NCBI GenBank assembly: GCA_947628015.1
Contig: CANQYG010000002.1
Coordinates: 1 to 38,240 of the forward strand
Length of the DNA: 38,240 nt
From: an uncultured Clostridia bacterium
GTDB taxonomy: Bacteria > Bacillota > Clostridia > TANB77 > CAG-508
Direction of reading: 5' to 3'
Part shown: positions 2-36,667 of the stretch, one piece after another
Layout of the letters: each line of letters opens with the position of its first letter
How positions within the stretch are numbered: position 1 is the first letter of the stretch
Translations under genes and position numbers: made by a program
The notes under the pieces: generated by a model
Database searches by the model: none
The model's input: only the letters and a program-made list of their open reading frames with translations
Told to the model about the DNA's origin: nothing

Positions 2-658
2 AATTGGGTATGGGCGAATAGTGATGGTGGTAATAAAGGAGGCTATGGAAAGGCAGAGTATACTTATTCAGATGGAAAGACTAAAGCACAAATGGTATAT
101 TTGTATATAAGACCAGGATATACAACGACAAATACTAAGATAATAGTAGGAACAGAAAATGAAATAAAGAATAACACATTACAAGGAAAAACATTTTTAG
201 GAGTAGCAGGAACAGCGACATCAGATGCGACAGCAGGAGCAGGAGATATATTAAGTGGAAAGACAGCATATGTAAAGGGAGCAAAGATAAATGGAAGTAT
301 GGCAAATAGAGGTTCACCAAAAGTAACTTTAAATGCGGGAAAATCATATTCGATACAAGCAGGATATTATGGAGGTGGTACTATAACTGCTGCTAATATG
401 AATGGACAGCTAAATATTTCTGGTAAAGTGAGTGTGAGTGAAGGATTTGTTGCTCCTTATGATAGTTTACTTATTGCCGCGCATACCGATGGTAGTAATG
501 GTGGAGCTTGGTGCTATGTTTCTGACGGGACAACATTCGGAAATGGTGAGGACCATATGGGTCCTAATATAATTGCAAGAGTTTTGAGCAAAGGTCTTAA
601 ATTAACAAATGTAAATGGTAGAGGTGGACGTGTATTTGCATTTATTCCGTTTAATTAA
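2..658 (+). CDS. 3' part of a larger secreted/surface protein with tail-fibre-like Gly/Ala/Thr-rich repeats (5' end lies outside the window)
   Basis: The frame of the 92..658 ORF stays open back to position 2 (NWVWANSDGGNKGGYGK...). It carries motifs such as GTATSDATAGAGDILSGKTAYVKGAKINGSMANRG and SYSIQAGYYGGGTITA, typical of phage tail-fibre-like repeat proteins. It is followed by switch copy 1. Confidence 0.5.
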   Translation, partial: NWVWANSDGGNKGGYGKAEYTYSDGKTKAQMVYLYIRPGYTTTNTKIIVGTENEIKNNTLQGKTFLGVAGTATSDATAGAGDILSGKTAYVKGAKINGSMANRGSPKVTLNAGKSYSIQAGYYGGGTITAANMNGQLNISGKVSVSEGFVAPYDSLLIAAHTDGSNGGAWCYVSDGTTFGNGEDHMGPNIIARVLSKGLKLTNVNGRGGRVFAFIPFN

Positions 659-690
659 ATTAGGATTAAAATTAAGATATATTGAATTTA

Positions 691-878
691 ATTAAGCTAA
701 AAACTTAATAAAAAATTAATATGTAAAAAATATAGCATAATGAATGGGGAAAAGCAAGGAAATAAAAAAGAAAAATATATCACAATTTGATAAAAAATGA
801 AAAGCAAAAAATCTTAGAAAAGCTTAGGACAAGCTGATTATAAGATTTTTTGCTTTTTTATTAAGTTTTTAGCTTAAT
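691..878. promoter_or_regulatory. IR-bounded switch-like element, copy 1 (candidate invertible promoter)
   Basis: Perfect 25-bp inverted repeat attaagctaaaaacttaataaaaaa (691-715) / ttttttattaagtttttagcttaat (854-878) encloses 138 bp. Inside is a minus-strand promoter TTGCTT-17 bp-TGcTATATT (757 down to 729) facing away from the gene. Also inside is an A-tract/stem/T-tract hairpin (800-816 with 841-857; inner AGCTT/AAGCT stem). Confidence 0.6.
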
Positions 879-916
879 AAAAATAACATAATGTAAAGGA
901 AAGGATATGAAAACAA

Positions 917-2245: not shown

Positions 2246-2271
2246 AATTTATATTTTAGAAGGTGACAGTT

Positions 2272-3030
2272 ATGGTATATGTAGATAATTTTGGAAATAT
2301 AATTGAAAATTCTAATATAAACTTTTCTAATATTGATTCTATAAATTTTGAATTAGATAAAAAGTATAAAAGTACTAATCCAGCACTAAGTATTAAATTT
2401 TCTAATAATATTGAAAAAAATATAAAATATATACAGAAATTATTAGATTTTCAAAAATTACATATAGACTTTATGACGGAATATAATGGCAAAAAAATAA
2501 AATATGTAATTTCTAATTACAATAATGATGTGAAAATAGCATTAAAAGCACTTTTCATAAATAATTCTAAAAAACAATATTTATTTTTATATGATAACAT
2601 TTTTAAATCTTTAGATATATTGTGGAATAAAAATAATCCATGTAAATTTTGCAATAATATATGTTCTGCATCAAAAAATAATAAATCAGCATATAAAGAA
2701 AATGGATGTTGCTATTCATTTGACTATTCTAAAAATATATTCAAATTTATTGATAATGTAAAATTATGCAAATATCTTGGTAAAGATAAAAATTGTATGA
2801 CAGAGAATATATCTTGTAAATTTTTTGCATGCAATTATTTAAAAAGAAATAATATATTTAATATTGATATGAAAAATTATATTCTTGTTCAAGCTTTCTT
2901 TAATAAAAAGCAAAAATTAGTTTTGAAATATAATTATTTTAAATCTAAAGAGGAAATTATAGAAAAACTTATAGAAAAAAATAATACACCATTTTTAATA
3001 TATTATTTTTTTAGTAAATATAGAATATGA
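2272..3030 (+). CDS. Cysteine-cluster protein, YkgJ/UPF0153 (CxxCxxCC, FliB-like) family candidate
   Basis: The ORF track starts at GTG 2263, but ATG 2272 has better SD spacing (GAAGGTG acagtt ATG). Cys pattern is C-x2-C-x3-C ... CC ... C-x8-C-x6-C-x4-C. The family call is from motif memory only. Confidence 0.45.
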   Translation: MVYVDNFGNIIENSNINFSNIDSINFELDKKYKSTNPALSIKFSNNIEKNIKYIQKLLDFQKLHIDFMTEYNGKKIKYVISNYNNDVKIALKALFINNSKKQYLFLYDNIFKSLDILWNKNNPCKFCNNICSASKNNKSAYKENGCCYSFDYSKNIFKFIDNVKLCKYLGKDKNCMTENISCKFFACNYLKRNNIFNIDMKNYILVQAFFNKKQKLVLKYNYFKSKEEIIEKLIEKNNTPFLIYYFFSKYRI

Positions 3031-3052: not shown

Positions 3053-3245
3053 TTTATTAATGTAAAAACTTAATAAAAATTAATATATGAAAAATATAGC
3101 ATAGTATAAGTATAAAATCAAGAAAATAAAAATTAAAAGTTTGTAATAATTTAATAAAAAATGAAAAGTAAAGATTTTATAAAAAGCTTGAGGAAAGCTG
3201 ATTATAAGATTTTTTACTTTTTTATTAAGTTTTTACATTAATAAA
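3053..3245. promoter_or_regulatory. IR-bounded switch-like element, copy 2 (candidate invertible promoter)
   Basis: Perfect 27-bp inverted repeat tttattaatgtaaaaacttaataaaaa (3053-3079) / tttttattaagtttttacattaataaa (3219-3245) encloses 139 bp. Inside is a minus-strand promoter TTGATT-17-TGcTATATT (3121 down to 3093). An imperfect hairpin spans about 3164-3221 with an inner AGCTT/AAGCT stem (3185-3189 / 3195-3199). Confidence 0.6.
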
Positions 3246-3279: not shown

Positions 3280-4110
3280 ATGAAATGTAAGGAAACACAA
3301 GAACAAGAAAAGATTAATTTACAGTTAATAAATAAGAAAAAAGTACAAAAATTAAAAGAAAAAGGAATAACATTAATAGCATTAGTAGTAACAATAATAA
3401 TCTTATTAATATTAGCAGGAGTAACATTAAATATGGCACTATCAGGAGATGGACTATTTAACAAAGCAAAATTAGCAATAAATAAATATGATGTAGCAAG
3501 TGAACAAGAAGTATTACAACAACAAATAATAGAATATCAAATGGATAATAATATAGATAAAATAGGAGAAAAATTAACAAATAGAAGTGTAACAGATAGC
3601 AGTTGGAAGGTAATACAATTAAATAATTCAGATAAAAACTATGGAACAAATTATTACTATATACAAAAAGATATTGCTGAGATACCTAATTATGGAAAAG
3701 CAAAATATAATTGGGTAATGAATTATGAAACAGGAGAAGTAATAAATATAGAAGAATATACAAAATTAGATGGTAATTCAGGAATATCAGTAACAGATAA
3801 CATAGCTTTGAATATAAATCCAATAAATTTGAGTGATAAAACTTCATGGGGAAGTAATGTAAATTTTATTGGTAATGAAGAAGAATCGGAAAACTCAGGA
3901 GTACAAGGAACAGAATTAAAATTTGATGGAATAGATGACTACCTAAAAATAGATAATGTAAAAATTGAAGAAAATGATGGAATTACATTTGAGTTTTATG
4001 GTACATTTGACGGAGACTGCTTGTATCCTCTTGAGGCATTAAAGATTAATGAAGATAATGTACCTTGTGGTGTGAAAGGATTTAGGATGGAGGTTCGGTT
4101 GGGCAAATGA
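3280..4110 (+). CDS. Pilin-like N-terminally anchored surface protein, paralog B, N-terminal portion (frame-disrupted)
   Basis: It has the same leader and hydrophobic helix as paralogs A and C (KEKGITLIALVVTIIILLILAGVTL). The C-terminal part begins a LamG/concanavalin-like domain (ELKFDGIDDYLKIDN...), which continues in the next ORF in another frame. Confidence 0.7.
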   Translation: MKCKETQEQEKINLQLINKKKVQKLKEKGITLIALVVTIIILLILAGVTLNMALSGDGLFNKAKLAINKYDVASEQEVLQQQIIEYQMDNNIDKIGEKLTNRSVTDSSWKVIQLNNSDKNYGTNYYYIQKDIAEIPNYGKAKYNWVMNYETGEVINIEEYTKLDGNSGISVTDNIALNINPINLSDKTSWGSNVNFIGNEEESENSGVQGTELKFDGIDDYLKIDNVKIEENDGITFEFYGTFDGDCLYPLEALKINEDNVPCGVKGFRMEVRLGK

Positions 4111-4111
4111 G

Positions 4112-4531
4112 GTGGTTACTTGCTGCTTCGGAATTGGAGATAGCGAGAGCGATATCAAAGATAATTATAGAGGACAACACTGGTTTACCTTTGAGAATAT
4201 TGGTTCGATAAAAAGTAATACTCCTGTCTATTTTTCGATTTCTGTTAATTATAAAACTGGTAGTGTTAATTTGTATTGGATGGGAGAGAATGGTACACTT
4301 ATTTGTAGAAGTACAATATGTTCTACGGAATATTTGAATAAAGGTAGAGAACTTATGAAGGACGCATCATATTGTGTTGGTGGTTATTATGGAGGAAATA
4401 ATCCTCATGCGTCATATTCTAAGATGAATTTGTATGCTTGTAGATTATATAATAGGATATTAGATTCTACAGAGGTAGAAAGAAACTTTAATGAAAGCAT
4501 TAATTATCGTAAATATTTAATGGAAAATTGA
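4112..4531 (+). CDS. C-terminal LamG/concanavalin-A-like lectin domain fragment of paralog B (frame open from 4076)
   Basis: It ends with the LamG_3-like signature ...SKMNLYACRLYNRILDSTEVERNF. It has no SD of its own. It overlaps the end of 3280..4110 in the +1 frame. Confidence 0.6.
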   Translation: MVTCCFGIGDSESDIKDNYRGQHWFTFENIGSIKSNTPVYFSISVNYKTGSVNLYWMGENGTLICRSTICSTEYLNKGRELMKDASYCVGGYYGGNNPHASYSKMNLYACRLYNRILDSTEVERNFNESINYRKYLMEN

Positions 4532-8858: not shown

Positions 8859-9692
8859 ATGAATATAAAAAGCAAATTACCAATAGTGCAGAAAATAATA
8901 AATAACATGGAGAAAGATCACATAAGTGAATCTTCTGCTCAATGTGCTTATTATGTTATATTGTCATTTGTACCATTTATAATATTATTATTAACATTAA
9001 TTCAATATACAGGAGTAGAGCCACAACAATTATTTAATATAATATCAGAAGTAATGCCAGCAGATATGAGTGGAGCAGTATTAAGTGTAATTATGGAAGT
9101 ATATTCAAAATCAATAGGAACAATTTCTTTATCAATAATTTTTACTTTATTTGCAGCAGATAAGGGATTGTTTGCATTAATAAAAGGCTTGCATACAGTA
9201 TATGAATTTAATGATAAACAGAAAAAATCAATTATATATTTGAAGTTAATATCATTATTAAAGACAATAGCCTTTGTTGTAATAATAGTAATAGGACTAG
9301 TTATGTTGGTATTTGGTAGCACTATAATTTCAACAATACAAGAAAAATTTGGACTTTTAAAAGACTATACAATAATTTCTGATATGATAACTCATTTGAT
9401 TTATATATTTGCTTTTTTTGTAATATTTTTATGTATCTACAAATTTTTGCCAGGATATAAAATAACATTTAGAAGTCAAATAAGGGGAGCACTTTTTGGA
9501 TCAGTTGCGTTAAATATTGTATCATTTATATTTTCTATATATTTAGAAATATTTAAAGGATTTTCTACAACTTATGGAAGTTTGACTGCTTTAATGCTTA
9601 TAATGATGTGGACTTATGCTTGTTTTTATATAATATTTTTAGGAGCAGAAATAAATAAATTTTATAGTATGAAAAAAGCTAACTTTAAATAG
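8859..9692 (+). CDS. YihY/BrkB-family membrane protein
   Basis: Polytopic membrane protein with SAQCAYYVILSFVPFI and FLGAEIN family signatures. Confidence 0.75.
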   Translation: MNIKSKLPIVQKIINNMEKDHISESSAQCAYYVILSFVPFIILLLTLIQYTGVEPQQLFNIISEVMPADMSGAVLSVIMEVYSKSIGTISLSIIFTLFAADKGLFALIKGLHTVYEFNDKQKKSIIYLKLISLLKTIAFVVIIVIGLVMLVFGSTIISTIQEKFGLLKDYTIISDMITHLIYIFAFFVIFLCIYKFLPGYKITFRSQIRGALFGSVALNIVSFIFSIYLEIFKGFSTTYGSLTALMLIMMWTYACFYIIFLGAEINKFYSMKKANFK

Positions 9693-9761
9693 TTAATTTT
9701 TCTCATTTTATTTCAATATTTTCTTTCATTTTAAGATTTTATGTTCAAATAAAAAATTATA

Positions 9762-9947
9762 ATTAATGTAAAAACTTAATAAAAATTACTATGTTAGAAA
9801 TATAGCATAATATCAATATAAAATCAATAAAATAAAAATTAAAAGTTTGTAATAATTTTATAGAAAATAGAAAAGAAAAATTTTATAAAAGCTTAAGGTA
9901 AGCCTATTATAAGATTTTTTACTTTTTTATTAAGTTTTTACCTTAAT
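9762..9947. promoter_or_regulatory. IR-bounded switch-like element, copy 3 (candidate invertible promoter)
   Basis: 24-bp inverted repeat attaatgtaaaaacttaataaaaa (9762-9785) / tttttattaagtttttaccttaat (9924-9947), with one mismatch (9767 vs 9942), encloses 138 bp. Inside is a minus-strand promoter TTGATT-17-TGcTATATT (9827 down to 9799). An imperfect hairpin spans about 9871-9926 with an inner GCTTA/TAAGC stem (9891-9895 / 9899-9903). Confidence 0.6.
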
Positions 9948-9984
9948 AAAAATAACATAATGTAAAATTGGAGGGATAAAACAA

Positions 9985-11226
9985 ATGAAATGTAAGGAAA
10001 TACAAGAAAAAGAAAAGATACTTAATAAGAAAAAAGTACAGAAATTAAAAGAAAAAGGAATAACATTAATAGCGCTTGTTGTAACAATAATAATATTGTT
10101 AATATTAGCAGGAGTGACATTAAATATGGCAATGTCAGGAGATGGATTGTTTAGCAAAGCAAGAGATGCAGCAGATAAGTATAAAAAAGCACAAGAAAAT
10201 GAAGAAAAAATATTAGAAGAAGTAGTAGATGATATGGAAAACATAAATATTGATTACAACGATTATGTTGGAGCATATGTAGAAGGATATGAACCAACAA
10301 GCGGAACTTGTACAATAAAAGGAACACAATCTGGAAAAAATGAGGATAAAACATTTTCTACAACAGGAGAAACAAAAGGTATAGAATGGAGAATCTGGGA
10401 CTATGATGGAACAACAATAAGATTAATATCCGATAAGCCAACAGAACAAACATTAACATTAACTGGAACAAATGGATATAATAATGGAGTATGGATAGTA
10501 AATGAAATTTGTAGGCAATGTTTTGGTCAATATGAAAATGGAGAAATGAAACAGGGAATAAATGTGGCAAATTTAAGGAGAAGTGATATTCAAAAGATAA
10601 GTACATATGATTATACCAAATTTGCACGTGTGAATGGAGACTGGGAAGATAAAGAAAATGGAGATATAAAATATGGAAGTAGCAAACCATATAGTAATTC
10701 AAAAAATCCTAAAATATGGGTAAATTATGATAAAAAATGGGAATATGAAAATAAAGATGGTGTAGGTAGTGGAGAAGATAAAGAAGGACTAATATTTGAA
10801 GAAGAAGGAACAAATGATGAAAGTATTGATGGATTGGGTGAAAGTGAGGATATTACCACGATTAAACAATCTGTATATTCACATAGGTATATAAAAGAAG
10901 ATTTTAAAAATATGAAATATTATGATATTATTTTTAATGGAAAAGATTACGAAGATGATTTTTGGTTATCAACACGAGGGTGTAATGTTCAGGATACTTT
11001 TTGTGATTTTGGATTAAACTATATTGCAATACATAGTGGAAATGAAACTTATGTAGTTTTAGAATCAATTACCAATACAACAGGTGGTTTGGGACTTAGA
11101 GAAACACAAACGAAGAAACTACGTCCTATTGTTTCAATAAATTTAAAGAGTAGTGGATATTCATTAAAAAAGATAAGAGGCTCTGACGGAAAAGTAGGTT
11201 TTAAGTTACAACAGAGTGGGAGCTAA
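9985..11226 (+). CDS. Pilin-like N-terminally anchored surface protein, paralog C (intact)
   Basis: 413 aa with the same leader and helix (KEKGITLIALVVTIIILLILAGVTL). It is colinear with paralog A (YVGAY..GY.PTSG.CTI, WRIWDYDGTT, GYNNGV, CRQCFGQYE, VANLRRSDI, LRPIVSINLK). Confidence 0.8.
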   Translation: MKCKEIQEKEKILNKKKVQKLKEKGITLIALVVTIIILLILAGVTLNMAMSGDGLFSKARDAADKYKKAQENEEKILEEVVDDMENINIDYNDYVGAYVEGYEPTSGTCTIKGTQSGKNEDKTFSTTGETKGIEWRIWDYDGTTIRLISDKPTEQTLTLTGTNGYNNGVWIVNEICRQCFGQYENGEMKQGINVANLRRSDIQKISTYDYTKFARVNGDWEDKENGDIKYGSSKPYSNSKNPKIWVNYDKKWEYENKDGVGSGEDKEGLIFEEEGTNDESIDGLGESEDITTIKQSVYSHRYIKEDFKNMKYYDIIFNGKDYEDDFWLSTRGCNVQDTFCDFGLNYIAIHSGNETYVVLESITNTTGGLGLRETQTKKLRPIVSINLKSSGYSLKKIRGSDGKVGFKLQQSGS

Positions 11227-11421: not shown

Positions 11422-12915
11422 ATGATATTAAAAAATATTTTGATGGGAATTCAAGGTTTAAAAGCCAAAGGAAATTTAGAATTAGATATAGGAAATATAA
11501 CAAGTGATTCTAGACAAATAAAACAAGGAGACTTTTTTATTGCTATAAAAGGATTTGAAACAGATGGTCATGAATATGTTTCACAAGCTGTAAAAGCAGG
11601 AGCAACAGCAGTTTTAGTAAATGAAGATAGAGTAAAAGAAATTATAAAAGATATTCCAGAAAATGTTACATTAATTGCAGCACCAGATTCAAGAGTTGCT
11701 ATGTCAAAATGTGCTTGTAATTTTTATGACAATCCTTCAAGAAAGTTTACTTTAATTGGGGTAACAGGAACAAAAGGAAAAACAACAACAACTTTTATGA
11801 TTAAAGAAATTCTTCAAAGGCAAGGTATTAAAACTGGATTAATAGGAACAATTGCAACTTATATAGGAGATAAAAAATTAGAAGATAGTGACAGAACTAC
11901 ACCAGATAGTATAAAATTACAAAGCTTATTTGCAAAAATGGTTGAAGAAAAATGTAATGCTGTTGTAATGGAAGTTTCATCACAAAGCTTAAAATTACAT
12001 AGAGTTGATGGTTGTGATTTTAATATAGGTGTATTTACTAATTTTTCAGAAGACCATATTAGTGAAAAAGAACATCCTAATATGGAAGATTATTTTAATT
12101 CAAAGGCAATGTTATTTAAAATGTGTCCTTATGGATTTATAAATGTAGACGATTTTAATTTGACTAAATTACCTAAAATGTCTCCAAATTGTGAGATTAA
12201 ATCTTATGGAATTGATAATGAATGTGATATGCTTGCAAAAGATATCACGATAACTAATTCTTATGTTGATTTCAGAGTAAAAGTTAATGGTAAAAATGAA
12301 AGAATAAAAACTTTTATACCAGGAAGATTCAGCGTTTACAACAGTTTAGCAGCAATATCAGTTGCTGAAAGATTAGGATGCGATACTGAAAATATTAAAA
12401 CTGCACTTGAAGAAGTTCGTGTTCCAGGTAGAAGTGAATTAGTAGATAACAAGCTTGATTTAACATTAATGATTGACTATGCTCATTCACCTGAAAGTTT
12501 ACAAAGTATTTTACAAGCTGTTAAAGCATATACAAGAGGAAAAGTTATTTCTGTATTTGGATGTGGAGGAGACAGAGATCCAGGAAAAAGACCAATAATG
12601 GGTGAAATTTCTGGTAAAATTGCAAATTACACAATAATTACTTCTGATAATCCTCGTACTGAAAATCCAGAAAAAATAGTTAATCAAATAGAAGAAGGAA
12701 TAAAAAAGACAAAAGGTAAATATGAATGTATAGTAGATAGAACAGAGGCCATAAAAAAAGCTATTGAAATGGCACAAAAAAATGATATTGTTGTATTAGC
12801 AGGAAAAGGACATGAGACATATCAAGAAATAAATCATATTAAAAATCCTTATGATGAAAGGGTTATTATAAGGGATGTAATTGAAGAAATTATTTCTGAA
12901 AGAAATAGCAAATAG
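11422..12915 (+). CDS. murE: UDP-N-acetylmuramoyl-L-alanyl-D-glutamate--2,6-diaminopimelate ligase
   Basis: GVTGTKGKTTT P-loop and a DNPR motif (TSDNPRTENP) typical of DAP-adding MurE. SD AAGGAGAGG. Confidence 0.9.
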   Translation: MILKNILMGIQGLKAKGNLELDIGNITSDSRQIKQGDFFIAIKGFETDGHEYVSQAVKAGATAVLVNEDRVKEIIKDIPENVTLIAAPDSRVAMSKCACNFYDNPSRKFTLIGVTGTKGKTTTTFMIKEILQRQGIKTGLIGTIATYIGDKKLEDSDRTTPDSIKLQSLFAKMVEEKCNAVVMEVSSQSLKLHRVDGCDFNIGVFTNFSEDHISEKEHPNMEDYFNSKAMLFKMCPYGFINVDDFNLTKLPKMSPNCEIKSYGIDNECDMLAKDITITNSYVDFRVKVNGKNERIKTFIPGRFSVYNSLAAISVAERLGCDTENIKTALEEVRVPGRSELVDNKLDLTLMIDYAHSPESLQSILQAVKAYTRGKVISVFGCGGDRDPGKRPIMGEISGKIANYTIITSDNPRTENPEKIVNQIEEGIKKTKGKYECIVDRTEAIKKAIEMAQKNDIVVLAGKGHETYQEINHIKNPYDERVIIRDVIEEIISERNSK

Positions 12916-33228: not shown

Positions 33229-34149
33229 ATGAAAAAGATTAAAAAAATAGTATTATTGACAATTATGATGATAGCAATATCTACATATACTTTTGCAGAT
33301 GTAGGAAGTTTTGAAGATTATGACTCAGGTTCAAGTTGGGACTCTGGTTCTAGCTGGGATTCAGGCTCTAGTTGGGACTCAGGCTCAAGTTGGGATTCTG
33401 GTTCAAGCTGGGACTCAGATTATAGTGGAAGTTCTGGTTTCTTTCCAATATTTTTTGGGGGAAATGTAGGATTTTACCTTTTTGTATTTTTTTTAATAAT
33501 TGTTGTTTCTATAGCTAAATCGAAGACAAGAAATAACAGAAATATGAACATTTCAAATATAAAATCAAGAAATATATATGAAGATAGTTTAGTATTAAAT
33601 AAAATAAAACAAGTAGATCCAAACTTTAATGGAGAAGAATTCCAAAGATTTGCAAAAGATGTATTTGTAAAATTGCAAAATGCATGGACAGATAGAGATT
33701 GGGAGAAGATAAGACCATTTGAAGCAGAAGAATTATTTGAACAACATAAAGCACAACTAGAAGGATATATAAAGAATAATCAAATAAACGTAATGGAAAG
33801 AATATGCGTAAACTGGGTACACTTCTTATCATTTGAACAATATGGAGGAAATGATATATTAAAAATAGATTTAAACTCAAGAATGGGAGACTACATCATA
33901 GATGCAACAACTAAAAAAGTAATTAGAGGAGATAAATCGAAAGAATATTATCACACATATATATTGACATTTATAAGAACAACAGGACAAACAACAGAGT
34001 TAGGACAAGATGGATTAAAAACAACAAATTGTCCAAATTGCGGAGCACCAACAACAATTACATCATCAGGAAGGTGTGAATACTGTAATAGTGTTATTAC
34101 GACAGAAGACCATGGATGGGTATTATCTAATTTAACAAGAAAAAATTAA
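33229..34149 (+). CDS. TIM44-like-domain membrane protein with C-terminal zinc ribbon (YdjG-like), paralog 1
   Basis: Signal peptide, five DSGSSW repeats, a TM, a conserved FQRFAKDVFVKLQNAWTDRDWEKIRPF region and CPNCGAP...CEYCNS. Confidence 0.65.
   Translation: MKKIKKIVLLTIMMIAISTYTFADVGSFEDYDSGSSWDSGSSWDSGSSWDSGSSWDSGSSWDSDYSGSSGFFPIFFGGNVGFYLFVFFLIIVVSIAKSKTRNNRNMNISNIKSRNIYEDSLVLNKIKQVDPNFNGEEFQRFAKDVFVKLQNAWTDRDWEKIRPFEAEELFEQHKAQLEGYIKNNQINVMERICVNWVHFLSFEQYGGNDILKIDLNSRMGDYIIDATTKKVIRGDKSKEYYHTYILTFIRTTGQTTELGQDGLKTTNCPNCGAPTTITSSGRCEYCNSVITTEDHGWVLSNLTRKN
33322..33411 (+). repeat. Five tandem 18-bp units encoding DSGSSW
   Basis: Units are gactcaggttcaagttgg / gactctggttctagctgg / gattcaggctctagttgg / gactcaggctcaagttgg / gattctggttcaagctgg. 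All differences are synonymous. Confidence 0.9.
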
Positions 34150-34204: not shown

Positions 34205-35083
34205 ATGAAAAAGATAAAAAAAATAGTATTATTAACAATTATTCTGATAACAATGTCCATGTACACTTTTGCAGAGGTAGGAAGTTTTGAAGATTATGAT
34301 TTTGGTTCGAGTTGGGATTCGAGCACAAGCTGGGATTCTGACGAGGACTCTAGTCATAGAAGAGTTTCTGGATATTTTCCAACTCCAATACTTTTTGTTG
34401 AAGATATTGGAACCTATATTTTTATATTTTTTGTGATTGTAATTATAACAGTAATAAAATCAAAAATTGGAATAAATAGAAGAAAAGATTATATAAAAAC
34501 GAGCACAATATATGAGGACAACTTAGTAATAAACAAAATAAAACAAGTGGATGCAAACTTTAATGAAGAAGAATTCCAAAGATTTGCAAAAGATGTATTT
34601 GTGAAATTGCAAAATGCATGGACAGATAGAGATTGGGAAAAGATAAGACCATTTGAAGCAGAAGAATTATTTGAACAACATAAAGCACAGCTAGAAGGAT
34701 ATATAAAAAATAATCAAATAAATGTAATGGAAAGAATATGTGTGAATTGGGTACACTTCTTATCATTTGAACAATATAAAGGAAAGGATATATTAAAAGT
34801 AGATTTAAACTCAAGAATGGGAGACTATATAATAGATGCAACAACTAAAAAAGTAATTAGAGGGAATAAATCGAAAGAATATTATCACACATATACATTG
34901 ACATTTGTAAGAACAACAGGACAAACAACAGAGTTAGGACAAGATGGATTAAAAACAACAAACTGTCCAAATTGTGGAGCACCGACAACAATTACATCAT
35001 CAGGAAGATGTGAATATTGCAATAGTGTTATTACAACAGAAGATCATGGATGGGTATTATCTAATTTAACAAGAAAAAATTAA
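34205..35083 (+). CDS. TIM44-like-domain membrane protein with C-terminal zinc ribbon (YdjG-like), paralog 2
   Basis: The C-terminal ~190 aa are almost identical to paralog 1. The N-terminal repeat is degenerate (DFGSSWDSSTSWDSDEDSS). Confidence 0.65.
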   Translation: MKKIKKIVLLTIILITMSMYTFAEVGSFEDYDFGSSWDSSTSWDSDEDSSHRRVSGYFPTPILFVEDIGTYIFIFFVIVIITVIKSKIGINRRKDYIKTSTIYEDNLVINKIKQVDANFNEEEFQRFAKDVFVKLQNAWTDRDWEKIRPFEAEELFEQHKAQLEGYIKNNQINVMERICVNWVHFLSFEQYKGKDILKVDLNSRMGDYIIDATTKKVIRGNKSKEYYHTYTLTFVRTTGQTTELGQDGLKTTNCPNCGAPTTITSSGRCEYCNSVITTEDHGWVLSNLTRKN

Positions 35084-35161: not shown

Positions 35162-36667
35162 ATGGGATTAATTAAAGCAGCTGTAAGTGCAGTATCAAGT
35201 ACACTAGGAGATCAATGGAAGGAGGCCATTCGTTGTGATGATATGACAGGTGATGTTTTAATGGTAAGAAAAACAACACCAACAGGAGTTATAACAAATG
35301 GAAGTACAATAATAGTAGCACCAGGCCAATGTGCAATATTATATGATAATGGAAAGGTAATTGACGCAACAGCAGAAGATGGAATTTACAAATTTGACGA
35401 ATCATCATCACCATCTTTCTTTGCAGGACAATTTAAAGAAACATTTAAAGAAATGTGGTCAAGATTTACATATGATGGAGCAACATCAAAACAACAAGCA
35501 GTATTTTTCTTCAATTTAAAAGAAATAATGGATAATAAATTTGGAACATCAACACCAATACCATTTCAAGATTGGTCACATCCAATACCAAATAGAATGA
35601 CAAACACAATGTCACCATTAAGTGTAAAAGTACGTTGCTATGGAACATATACATTTAAAATAGATAATCCTGCAGTATTTATGCAAGAACTAGCTGGAAC
35701 AGCAGATATATATTATACATCTTCAGTAGTTGGACAAATGAGAAGTGAAGTTATAGCAGCATTCCAAAATGTATTAAATGAGCTAGGAAATTCAGAGCAT
35801 AAAGTTCCAGTTTTAGAAATGCCAAGTCAAACAGATGAAATGAAACAAATGATGGAAGAAAGAATATTTGATGAGCCAATTAGAAGAAGAGGAATAAGAT
35901 TAATAAGTTTCTCAGTAGAATCAGTATCACTAGAAGAAGAATCAGAAAAGAAAATAAATGAATATGAACTAGGTTCAAACTCATATATGCAACAAGGAAG
36001 AATGACAACAGCATATGCAAATGCAGTAGAAAATGCAGCTCAAAATGCAAATGGAGCAGCAAATGGTTTTATGGGGATTGGAATGATGAATATGGCAACA
36101 GGAGGAATGATGGGAGGAAATGCAACATCACCTTGGCAAAATCAAGGACAACAAGGTAATTCAGTAAATTATAACCCTTATGAAAATCAACAACAACCAC
36201 AAGCTCAAAATATGACACAAGCACCTCAAAATCAAGTGCAAGAAAACGTAATGCAAGGAAATATGCAGCAACCACAAGAAAGCGTGCAACAAGCTACTCA
36301 ACCACAGGTTCAAGAAAATGTATCACCAGAACCTCAAAATCAAGTACAAGAGAGTGTAATGCAAGAAAACATACCACAACCACAAGAAAGCATGCAAGAA
36401 GTTTCACAAGCACAAGTTCAAGAAAATGTACCACAAGAACCTCAAAATCAAGTGCAAGAAAATGTAATGCAAGAAAACATACCACAACCACAAGAAAGTG
36501 TGCAAGAAGCCTCACAACCACAAGTTCAAGAAGTAGCTGAAGAAACACAAAATCAAGTTCAAAGCCCTGAAGAATCTGCAAACGGAAACTTAAAAATGTG
36601 TAAAAGATGTGGAAATATGAACCCATCAAATTCAAAATTCTGTAATAATTGTGGAAATGAACTATAA
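35162..36667 (+). CDS. SPFH-superfamily (COG4260 virion-core-protein-like, YdjI-like) protein with Gln-rich repeats and C-terminal zinc ribbon
   Basis: The N-terminal ~300 aa are globular (IIVAPGQCAILYDNGKVID...). The C-terminus holds 3 x 36-aa Q/P/E repeats and CKRCGN...CNNCGN. Confidence 0.6.
   Translation: MGLIKAAVSAVSSTLGDQWKEAIRCDDMTGDVLMVRKTTPTGVITNGSTIIVAPGQCAILYDNGKVIDATAEDGIYKFDESSSPSFFAGQFKETFKEMWSRFTYDGATSKQQAVFFFNLKEIMDNKFGTSTPIPFQDWSHPIPNRMTNTMSPLSVKVRCYGTYTFKIDNPAVFMQELAGTADIYYTSSVVGQMRSEVIAAFQNVLNELGNSEHKVPVLEMPSQTDEMKQMMEERIFDEPIRRRGIRLISFSVESVSLEEESEKKINEYELGSNSYMQQGRMTTAYANAVENAAQNANGAANGFMGIGMMNMATGGMMGGNATSPWQNQGQQGNSVNYNPYENQQQPQAQNMTQAPQNQVQENVMQGNMQQPQESVQQATQPQVQENVSPEPQNQVQESVMQENIPQPQESMQEVSQAQVQENVPQEPQNQVQENVMQENIPQPQESVQEASQPQVQEVAEETQNQVQSPEESANGNLKMCKRCGNMNPSNSKFCNNCGNEL
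36224..36547 (+). repeat. Three tandem 108-bp coding repeats (PQNQVQENVMQENIPQPQESVQE...)
   Basis: Units start at 36224, 36332 and 36440, each beginning cctcaaaatcaagt. Confidence 0.85.

Follow-up and report, generated by a model that had tools for sequence, protein, structure and literature searches.

Probable invertible promoter elements upstream of pilin-like genes at many loci of uncultured gut Clostridia

We analyzed a 38,240-nucleotide (nt) stretch of DNA (the window) from contig CANQYG010000002.1 of an uncultured Clostridia bacterium, in which a short repeat-flanked element at 9757-9952, the third of three copies, precedes a gene for a pilin-like protein, and compared it with the closest described phase-variation switches. 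In Bacteroides fragilis the invertase Mpi is a serine recombinase that acts on short repeats, and most of the loci it controls are OFF in most cells. These capsular-polysaccharide promoters lie at dispersed loci, have one repeat consensus, and are inverted in trans by Mpi as a global invertase (PMC2268961 and established background). Mycoplasma penetrans, as outlined in PMC2268961 citing Horino et al. 2003, has 38 lipoprotein genes of the mpl (P35) family at several loci, most with an invertible promoter of their own that switches independently, and the same outline names tyrosine recombinases encoded elsewhere as the proposed invertases. In C. difficile, RecV, an XerC/D-family tyrosine recombinase encoded elsewhere, flips several unlinked switches (cwpV, flgB, cmr); the cwpV switch contains no promoter, forms a terminator in one orientation only, and is ON in ~5% of cells (PMC2784873). 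The E. coli fimS element (FimB/FimE), mentioned in PMC2784873, is the classic invertible promoter before a pilus subunit gene, and large surveys (for example PMC11892184 and PMC11602134) describe such invertible elements (invertons) as common in gut bacteria. A literature search found no paper linking invertible promoters with pilin-like genes in Clostridia.

We consider it very likely that 9757-9952 is an inverton in the OFF orientation, with its promoter directed away from the gene, and that it belongs to a multi-locus family associated with pilin-like genes. The kind of system is known, but the lineage and the gene family in which it occurs here are new. The closest functional analogue is the M. 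penetrans mpl family (PMC2268961): there, and very probably in our family too, each of dozens of paralogous surface-protein genes has a small invertible promoter of its own. The two differ in host (gut spore-forming Clostridia versus Mollicutes), in product (pilin-like proteins versus lipoproteins) and in their unrelated repeat sequences, and mpl inversion was shown experimentally, whereas that of our family is deduced from sequence comparisons. Like the B. fragilis promoters, the family has many dispersed, mostly OFF loci with a shared repeat consensus in a gut commensal, but its end sites suggest a tyrosine recombinase, its switches precede single genes rather than long biosynthetic operons, and it has roughly three times more loci per genome. 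With the C. difficile switches it shares the class Clostridia, elements of ~150-200 base pairs (bp), imperfect repeats of ~21 bp and a position upstream of surface-structure genes. Unlike cwpV and flgB, which are promoterless and act after initiation through a terminator or Rho, it has a promoter inside the element and a putative terminator in both orientations, and where C. difficile has ~7 switches with differing repeats, it has dozens with an identical core. As in fimS, which uses tyrosine recombinases and precedes a pilus subunit gene, the repeats are flanked by (here putative) recombinase half-sites and lie upstream of a pilin-like gene; fimS, however, is a single 314-bp locus with 9-bp repeats and adjacent recombinase genes, whereas our elements have a 138-bp interior in copy 3, many loci and no linked recombinase.

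A sequence-only reading of the window had described copy 3 as a 24-bp inverted repeat with one mismatch enclosing 138 bp, and the arms at 9762-9785 and 9924-9947 are indeed complementary with one mismatch. A repeat finder extended the repeat to 30 nt at 90% (9756-9785 / 9924-9953), again with 138 nt between the arms, and a 17-nt core at 9769-9785 is an exact inverted match of 9924-9940. The 16-nt core AAAAACTTAATAAAAA has six exact occurrences in the window, forming three inverted pairs (699/855, 3064/3219, 9770/9924). At two or fewer mismatches it gave 13 matches against 2.6 expected, and none of 100 shuffles reached 13; the inverted core is far above chance. The three elements align end to end, the third over 9756-9953 (Table 1). 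As expected of an inverton, copy 3 is an inverted repeat pair around a short intergenic segment near a gene start, 44 nt from the ATG.

At both ends of the element, two 11-nt half-sites flank a 7-nt spacer and together make an imperfect palindrome (11-7-11). In copy 3 the outer half-site matches the inner one at 8 of 11 positions on the far side and at 11 of 11 on the gene side; over 40 copies the corresponding ranges are 7-10 and 10-11. Inverted half-sites around an asymmetric spacer of 6-8 bp, the sequence pattern of tyrosine-recombinase core sites, are thus present at both ends, and the sites of the switch family are also characterized by the motif TAAAAACTTAATAAAAA. The 11-7-11 layout is that of the core sites dif, loxP and FRT, and it suggests that the end sites are recognized by a tyrosine recombinase. 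As the two sites are in inverted orientation, inversion would be the predicted outcome of recombination between them.

Table 1. Coordinates of the features discussed; positions are those of the window unless a locus is named.
Feature	Position	Strand	Description
Switch copy 1	687..882		core arms 698-714 / 855-871; 140-nt interior; OFF; upstream of gene 917-2077
Switch copy 2	3053..3245		core arms 3063-3079 / 3219-3235; 139-nt interior; 27-nt perfect inverted repeat; OFF
Gene behind switch copy 2	3280-4110, then 4112-4531		
Far-side recombination site, copy 3 (putative)	9757..9785		outer half-site TTATAATTAAT (9757-9767), spacer GTAAAAA (9768-9774), inner half-site CTTAATAAAAA (9775-9785)
Gene-side recombination site, copy 3 (putative)	9924..9952		inner half-site TTTTTATTAAG (9924-9934), spacer TTTTTAC (9935-9941), outer half-site CTTAATAAAAA (9942-9952)
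Sigma-70-type promoter (predicted)	9799..9827	-	-35 TTGATT (9827-9822), 17-nt spacer, extended -10 TGcTATATT (9807-9799)
Long A/U-rich hairpin	9868..9929	+	outer stem 9876-9888 / 9907-9919, inner stem 9891-9895 / 9899-9903
Leader	9953..9984	+	ribosome-binding site GGAGGG (9970-9975), then ATG at 9985
Controlled gene of copy 3	9985..11226	+	413 amino acids
Rpn-family genes at locus L035 ('recombination-promoting nuclease / putative transposase')	3488-4402, 2370-3308 of L035	-	

The interior of copy 3 contains the minus-strand promoter TTGATT-17-TGcTATATT. The sequence-only reading had placed it 13 nt from the left repeat and had noted that in each of the three window copies it is directed away from the gene; we found both to be so, with the -10 hexamer TATATT at 9804-9799 and the promoter ending 13 nt from the far-side repeat. 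An alignment of 43 non-identical copies showed that the -35 TTG and the TG extension are 100% conserved and that the -10 hexamer is conserved at T100 A100 T95 A70 T100 T98 (percent), while the other interior columns average 80%. Conservation therefore peaks at exactly the positions important for promoter function, and the segment holds a predicted promoter that reads out through one of the repeats. The leader, the 44 nt that separate the gene-side repeat from the ATG, contains only a ribosome-binding site (RBS); neither inspection of the sequence nor a promoter scan revealed a promoter there. The leader is conserved across the three window copies and related loci, and 44-45 nt downstream of each of the three elements, after the RBS, is the ATG of a gene whose product has a prepilin-like N-terminus.

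The inner stem GCTTA/TAAGC, which had been singled out as a structure-preserving substitution, is present, but it is the tip of a longer hairpin (Table 1). This hairpin adjoins the gene-side repeat, so that the OFF state places it directly upstream of the gene. Its folding energy was -15.4 kcal/mol in copy 3 (z = -2.9), -20.2 in copy 2 (z = -5.8) and -24.2 in copy 1 (z = -6.0). Over 43 copies and 20 pairs, 89.7% of cells were paired, versus 44-56% when the partners were slid, and nine pairs had changes on both sides. The covariation score was 0.195 against 0.04-0.07 in the slid controls, and 0 of 500 shuffles reached that score. A run of U follows the stem on either strand (minus strand of 9868-9935 in the window; L030:70-140), and the hairpin therefore resembles a bidirectional intrinsic terminator, which is how we putatively assign it.

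We also looked for the element in other genomes. A repeat-pair scan that allowed any interior and used one genome per species found 33 stretches in at least 8 metagenome-assembled genomes (MAGs), seven of them from rabbit gut ('Lapin-…', uncultured Clostridia, one labelled Bacilli) and one from human gut (MGYG-HGUT-03977). At least 23 elements occurred in a single MAG, Lapin-007 bin23. In a census that did not depend on the repeats, 43 of 46 pilin-type gene starts in the window and the loci had a repeat pair upstream, at the same distance. Homologous-protein look-ups added further units, for a total of ~60 switch-plus-gene units in at least 8 species-level gut MAGs, which agrees with the multi-locus system that had been proposed from the window. 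The units also proved to be dispersed among housekeeping genes, as had been claimed: the 147 open reading frames (ORFs) that flank the elements showed no enrichment of mobile-element genes and were of housekeeping type (Mur ligases, trigger factor, ClpB, RsgA, ATP-binding cassette transporters and others). Copy 3 and its gene do lie between yihY and murE, the window annotation giving YihY/BrkB at 8859-9692 and MurE at 11422-12915. Tandem arrays of switch plus gene were common (L008, L015, L052). The repeated unit consists of the element, the leader and the 5' part of the gene, and conservation is far stronger in the 5' modules of the genes than in their 3' parts. The distance from element to start codon was 41-47 nt, and the gene belonged to the same family or to one other.

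That other gene type was seen at L004:1447-1619 and L033:708-881, where the switch stands in its usual orientation before a gene for a small membrane-anchored protein of ~150 amino acids (aa); the two proteins start MKKNEKKMISILIIV… and MKKSEIKMIVIILIVG…. At L035:4563-4720, an element of the human-gut type, the promoter end faces two tandem Rpn-family PD-(D/E)XK genes (TIGR01784) and there is no pilin gene. The search for recombinase genes turned up three Rpn-family PD-(D/E)XK genes, which we did not regard as invertases. One family member, P0083 (upstream region L045:1171-1500), has no repeat element; because it has a promoter-like sequence of its own (TTGCAA-17-TAATAT), it suggests that some paralogs are expressed constitutively. 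The element at L024:61-222 has an identical 17-nt core and a divergent 128-nt interior and comes from the MAG labelled 'Bacilli' (Lapin-019 bin41), which could be an error of binning, the result of horizontal transfer or a sign that the element is more widely distributed. When metagenomes were scanned with an orientation-neutral inverted repeat pair, just 3 loci came back; all were of the human-gut type, and they yielded no useful ON/OFF statistics. A scan of viral contigs for the element returned nothing.

The ~60 units are arranged as in the window, with the promoter away from the gene and the hairpin next to it, except for three flipped copies. In the flipped copy L030:60-232 (Lapin-007 bin23) the hairpin adjoins the far repeat, and the predicted promoter TTGATT-17-TGCTATTTT is directed into a complete pilin-type gene of 413 aa. 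Its interior shows 50-55% identity to other copies as read and 83-92% after reverse-complementing. Over 70 nt, the gene-side flank matches that of a paralog at 100% identity and is thus unchanged, which places the breakpoints inside the repeats. Both of its repeat arms have the same base change (AAAACC / GGTTTT), as expected if recombination homogenizes the arms. The same change in both arms (TAAAACCTTAAT / ATTAAGGTTTTA) was seen at L030:60-76/216-232, at L053 (gene at 601; arms at ~115 and ~271 within the 330-nt upstream stretch) and at L008:7034-7207. The elements L024:61-222 and L026:61-233 are flipped likewise, toward an RBS and an ATG; their contigs end 60 nt past the repeat, so that the downstream genes could not be read.

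The ends of these contigs are informative. All three flipped contigs start with exactly 77 nt composed of unique flank and of repeat bases that are identical in both orientations (59+18, 60+17 and 60+17). Within one assembly, the starts of contigs CANQCW010000044.1 (L015) and CANQCW010000014.1 (L030) overlap by exactly that 77-mer. Contigs that have a terminal k-mer in common and were left unjoined indicate that the de Bruijn graph (k = 77) branched there, at the inner edge of the repeat, and hence that the reads of the sample held at least two continuations from that edge, one of them the flipped interior. Such a branch would be expected from a mixture of ON and OFF cells and is indirect evidence that the Lapin-007 reads probably contained both orientations. 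For L016 and L043 the values were 78 and 76; no such pattern was seen at the other contig ends close to elements. Together, the three flipped copies with breakpoints in the repeats and the exact k = 77 branch support the view that the element is invertible.

Several observations weigh against an invertible promoter. No single locus was found in both orientations as assembled sequence: in same-locus comparisons made by exact-protein look-ups across samples, five loci were OFF in every sample (window copy 3 in 2 samples, P0007 in 6, P0137 in 4, P0123 in 3 and P0152 in 2). A comparison with related genomes for flipped alleles had been suggested; flipped elements were found as paralogous copies but not at these five loci. 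Only 1 of ~47 pilin-linked copies is flipped (L030), the gene starts at L024 and L026 being truncated and not of the pilin type. When L026 was followed through its anchor gene, the exact protein was not on record, and the orthologous site in more distant species had no element. The second branch at the 77-mer was not seen, and exchange with another locus is possible in principle. Promoter and terminator activity are predicted from sequence, and a simple consensus terminator scan does not report the A/U-rich hairpin, as it has fewer than three G-C pairs. A scan of the window ORFs revealed no recombinase gene. The 147 flanking ORFs included no invertase, and their sole tyrosine recombinase, at L022, is a canonical XerD, which we take as the housekeeping enzyme because it passes the XerD equivalog cut-off and has the usual context, adjoining spoIIM. 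Of the earlier suggestion of a common recombinase, what stands is the shared 11-7-11 end sites; no gene for it lies in the window or beside the elements. Flipped copies would be expected to be rare in assemblies if each cell had perhaps one or a few of its dozens of loci ON, since the consensus would then read OFF nearly everywhere.

The single orientation in every same-locus comparison, and the common orientation of ~95% of copies, would also be expected of a fixed cis-regulatory cassette that does not invert, in which the repeats are operators for a dimeric regulator, the promoter and terminator are static, and the flipped copies are old rearrangements; the palindromic 11-7-11 sites could equally be such operators. 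Under this explanation, however, the gene would lack its own promoter and the leftward promoter would make only antisense RNA to unrelated upstream genes. The flipped copies have their breakpoints exactly in the repeats, with unchanged flanks, and contigs break at the exact k-mer where the orientations diverge, which points to heterogeneity within one sample. We therefore rejected the static cassette as improbable. The unchanged flanks also bear on a recombination between loci, shufflon-like or by cassette exchange, that would move promoters or 5' gene modules rather than flip them locally. The identical core sites at all loci, the tandem arrays at L008, L015 and L052, the strong conservation of 5' modules relative to 3' parts, and the unseen second branch at the 77-mer vertex are all compatible with such exchange. 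Yet L030 keeps its own interior (92% identical, reversed, to its closest relatives) and both of its own flanks, as a local inversion predicts, and no chimeric inter-locus junction was seen in ~60 units, which leaves little likelihood for exchange between loci.

Less likely still is a switch of the cwpV type, with the true promoter outside the element and inversion serving only to create or abolish a terminator in the 5' leader. The cwpV switch is a precedent of similar build (a 195-bp element with 21-bp repeats, ~5% of cells ON; PMC2784873), and in the common orientation our elements do place a strong hairpin, followed by a U-run, between the gene and the region upstream. But the U-run follows the hairpin in both orientations, so inversion would not relieve termination; there is no conserved promoter beyond the far-side repeat, where the flanks are the ends of unrelated housekeeping genes; and a conserved promoter lies inside the element. 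A terminator-only switch was rejected on these grounds. We gave the lowest likelihood of all to a non-autonomous mobile element resembling a miniature inverted-repeat transposable element, with terminal inverted repeats and an outward promoter by chance. The elements are short (~195 bp), repeat-flanked and present in many dispersed copies, but they always stand 41-47 nt before the start codon of a gene of one family (or of one other), and ~95% of them share one orientation. In addition, the repeated unit extends over the leader and the 5' portion of the gene, there is no visible target-site duplication, the outer half-sites belong to the conserved site, and the element is absent from viral contigs. 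On these grounds we rejected this explanation.

Taking the element as an invertible promoter, we propose that a recombinase encoded elsewhere and acting in trans would bind the two inverted 11-7-11 end sites, and that strand exchange within the 7-nt spacers would flip the 138-bp interior. In the window orientation the gene would be silent, because the only promoter fires away from it and the putative terminator, lying between yihY and the pilin-like gene, would block read-through from yihY. After inversion the promoter would be 13 nt from the gene-side repeat and would read through the repeat and the 44-nt leader into the gene, while the terminator would come to lie on the far side and still block read-through from upstream. 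With the terminator insulating in both states, expression would depend only on the orientation of the switch. A switch of this kind before dozens of paralogs per genome, each flipping independently, would yield a combinatorial, phase-variable repertoire of pilin-like envelope proteins. The earlier proposal of a multi-locus phase-variable surface-protein repertoire mostly holds, given the copies, the flipped elements and the conserved inner promoter.

The switches stand out by how many loci a genome has, by the missing annotation of the associated gene family, by their compact self-insulated design and by the lack of a linked recombinase. If the proposal is true, gut bacteria known only from metagenomes vary their surface by independent switching of dozens of pilin-like genes, and the assembly breaks at these loci are explained. 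The defined motif, pairs of TTTTTATTAAG-N7-CTTAATAAAAA ~140 bp apart, would allow ON/OFF genotyping per read in rabbit and human gut metagenomes. The compact design, a promoter and a bidirectional terminator between two core sites, could serve as a tight genetic toggle. It is possible, though doubtful, that the uncultured low-GC gut Clostridia of the rabbit and human MAGs have one of the largest one-promoter-per-gene phase-variation systems known, with dozens of self-insulated switches before a hyper-diverse, structurally novel pilin-like family, flipped by a housekeeping Xer or by an unrecognized enzyme class; both are considered since no recombinase is linked to any of the ~60 switches.

We next describe the controlled proteins. 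The products behind all three window elements start with a basic leader followed by G-ITLIALVVTIIILLILAGV. In the 413-aa protein of copy 3 the basic leader has 24 residues and is followed by G|ITLIALVVTIIILLILAGV, a prepilin-like hydrophobic helix, then by a long helix and a beta-rich head. The Pfam model PF07963 (N_methyl) scored 16.3-16.9 bits, below its cut-off of 21.2; the G at -1 of the prepilin motif is present, but position +5 is Ala and the canonical Glu is absent. The best match in a sequence search of the PDB was to residues 3-23 of the MshA pilin, at only E = 0.073. In a confident AlphaFold model built on 65 homologs (predicted local distance difference test 86, predicted template modeling score 0.78), the leader is disordered, residues 16-87 make a long N-terminal helix, and the head is beta-rich. 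A Foldseek search of this model against the PDB gave no match for the head (best E-value 0.38), and Pfam, NCBIfam, PHROGs and PADLOC gave nothing significant for the protein. The surface protein that had been proposed therefore retains its predicted N-terminal membrane helix and a prepilin-like motif, but the motif is weak and sub-threshold. 'Pilin-like envelope protein' is a reasonable label for the family; 'type IV pilin' goes beyond the evidence. The family comprises at least 1959 proteins at E below 1e-5, none with a name or a Pfam domain. Among the matches listed, the closest relative of the 413-aa protein was 52% identical, and a protein look-up had no exact copy of it on record. If the proposed switching is true, host or phage selection probably acts on this abundant family, which has no Pfam domain and no known fold.

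The copy 3 gene had been called the only intact paralog. The gene of copy 1 is indeed frameshifted and that of copy 2 is split, but related loci have the same forms. Relative to 420-aa relatives, the copy 1 gene (917-2077) is frameshifted near 2040-2053, and its last ~50 residues lie in another frame (2037-2174); the same short form is found in a 382-aa ortholog from another sample (P0015, 92% identical). The two ORFs behind copy 2 lie in different frames, and because the same two-frame arrangement occurs at L028 (929-1438, 1524-1844), the split could represent a frameshift that is conserved, or two genes forming one unit, instead of simple decay. A Cys-rich 255-aa ORF (2263-3030, plus strand) immediately precedes switch copy 2 and has a counterpart at L021:2632-3399 (minus strand). 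It is conserved along with the switch in another MAG, with 78% aa identity and 84% DNA identity over 1.2 kb, and had no match in Pfam, NCBIfam, PHROGs or PADLOC. An ORF that is open from the first base of the window (2-658, plus strand) is the C-terminal part of a fourth family gene, with internal repeats; it is 82% identical to P0128 residues 363-497, and its head-domain class is shared with the flipped L030 gene.

Elsewhere, the window covers a chromosomal region for cell division and sporulation that includes uvrC, lspA, mraY, ftsW, murG, topA, smc, murA, ftsQ, ftsA, ftsZ, spoIIGA and a sigma factor. The G+C content is 26-28%. An Rfam scan of the window matched no family. The plus strand holds all long ORFs except one, and the GC skew is strongly positive throughout (+0.25 to +0.32). 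Two tandem paralogs with a Tim44-like domain (33229-34149 and 34205-35083) have a 300-nt stretch in common at 92% identity. A gene with SPFH/Band-7 and zinc-ribbon domains (35162-36667) contains internal direct repeats with 36/72-nt periodicity at 36207-36532. Finally, the bacterial ORF at 18659-19450 matches the ALK/LTK glycine-rich domain (PF12810, E = 2e-15).

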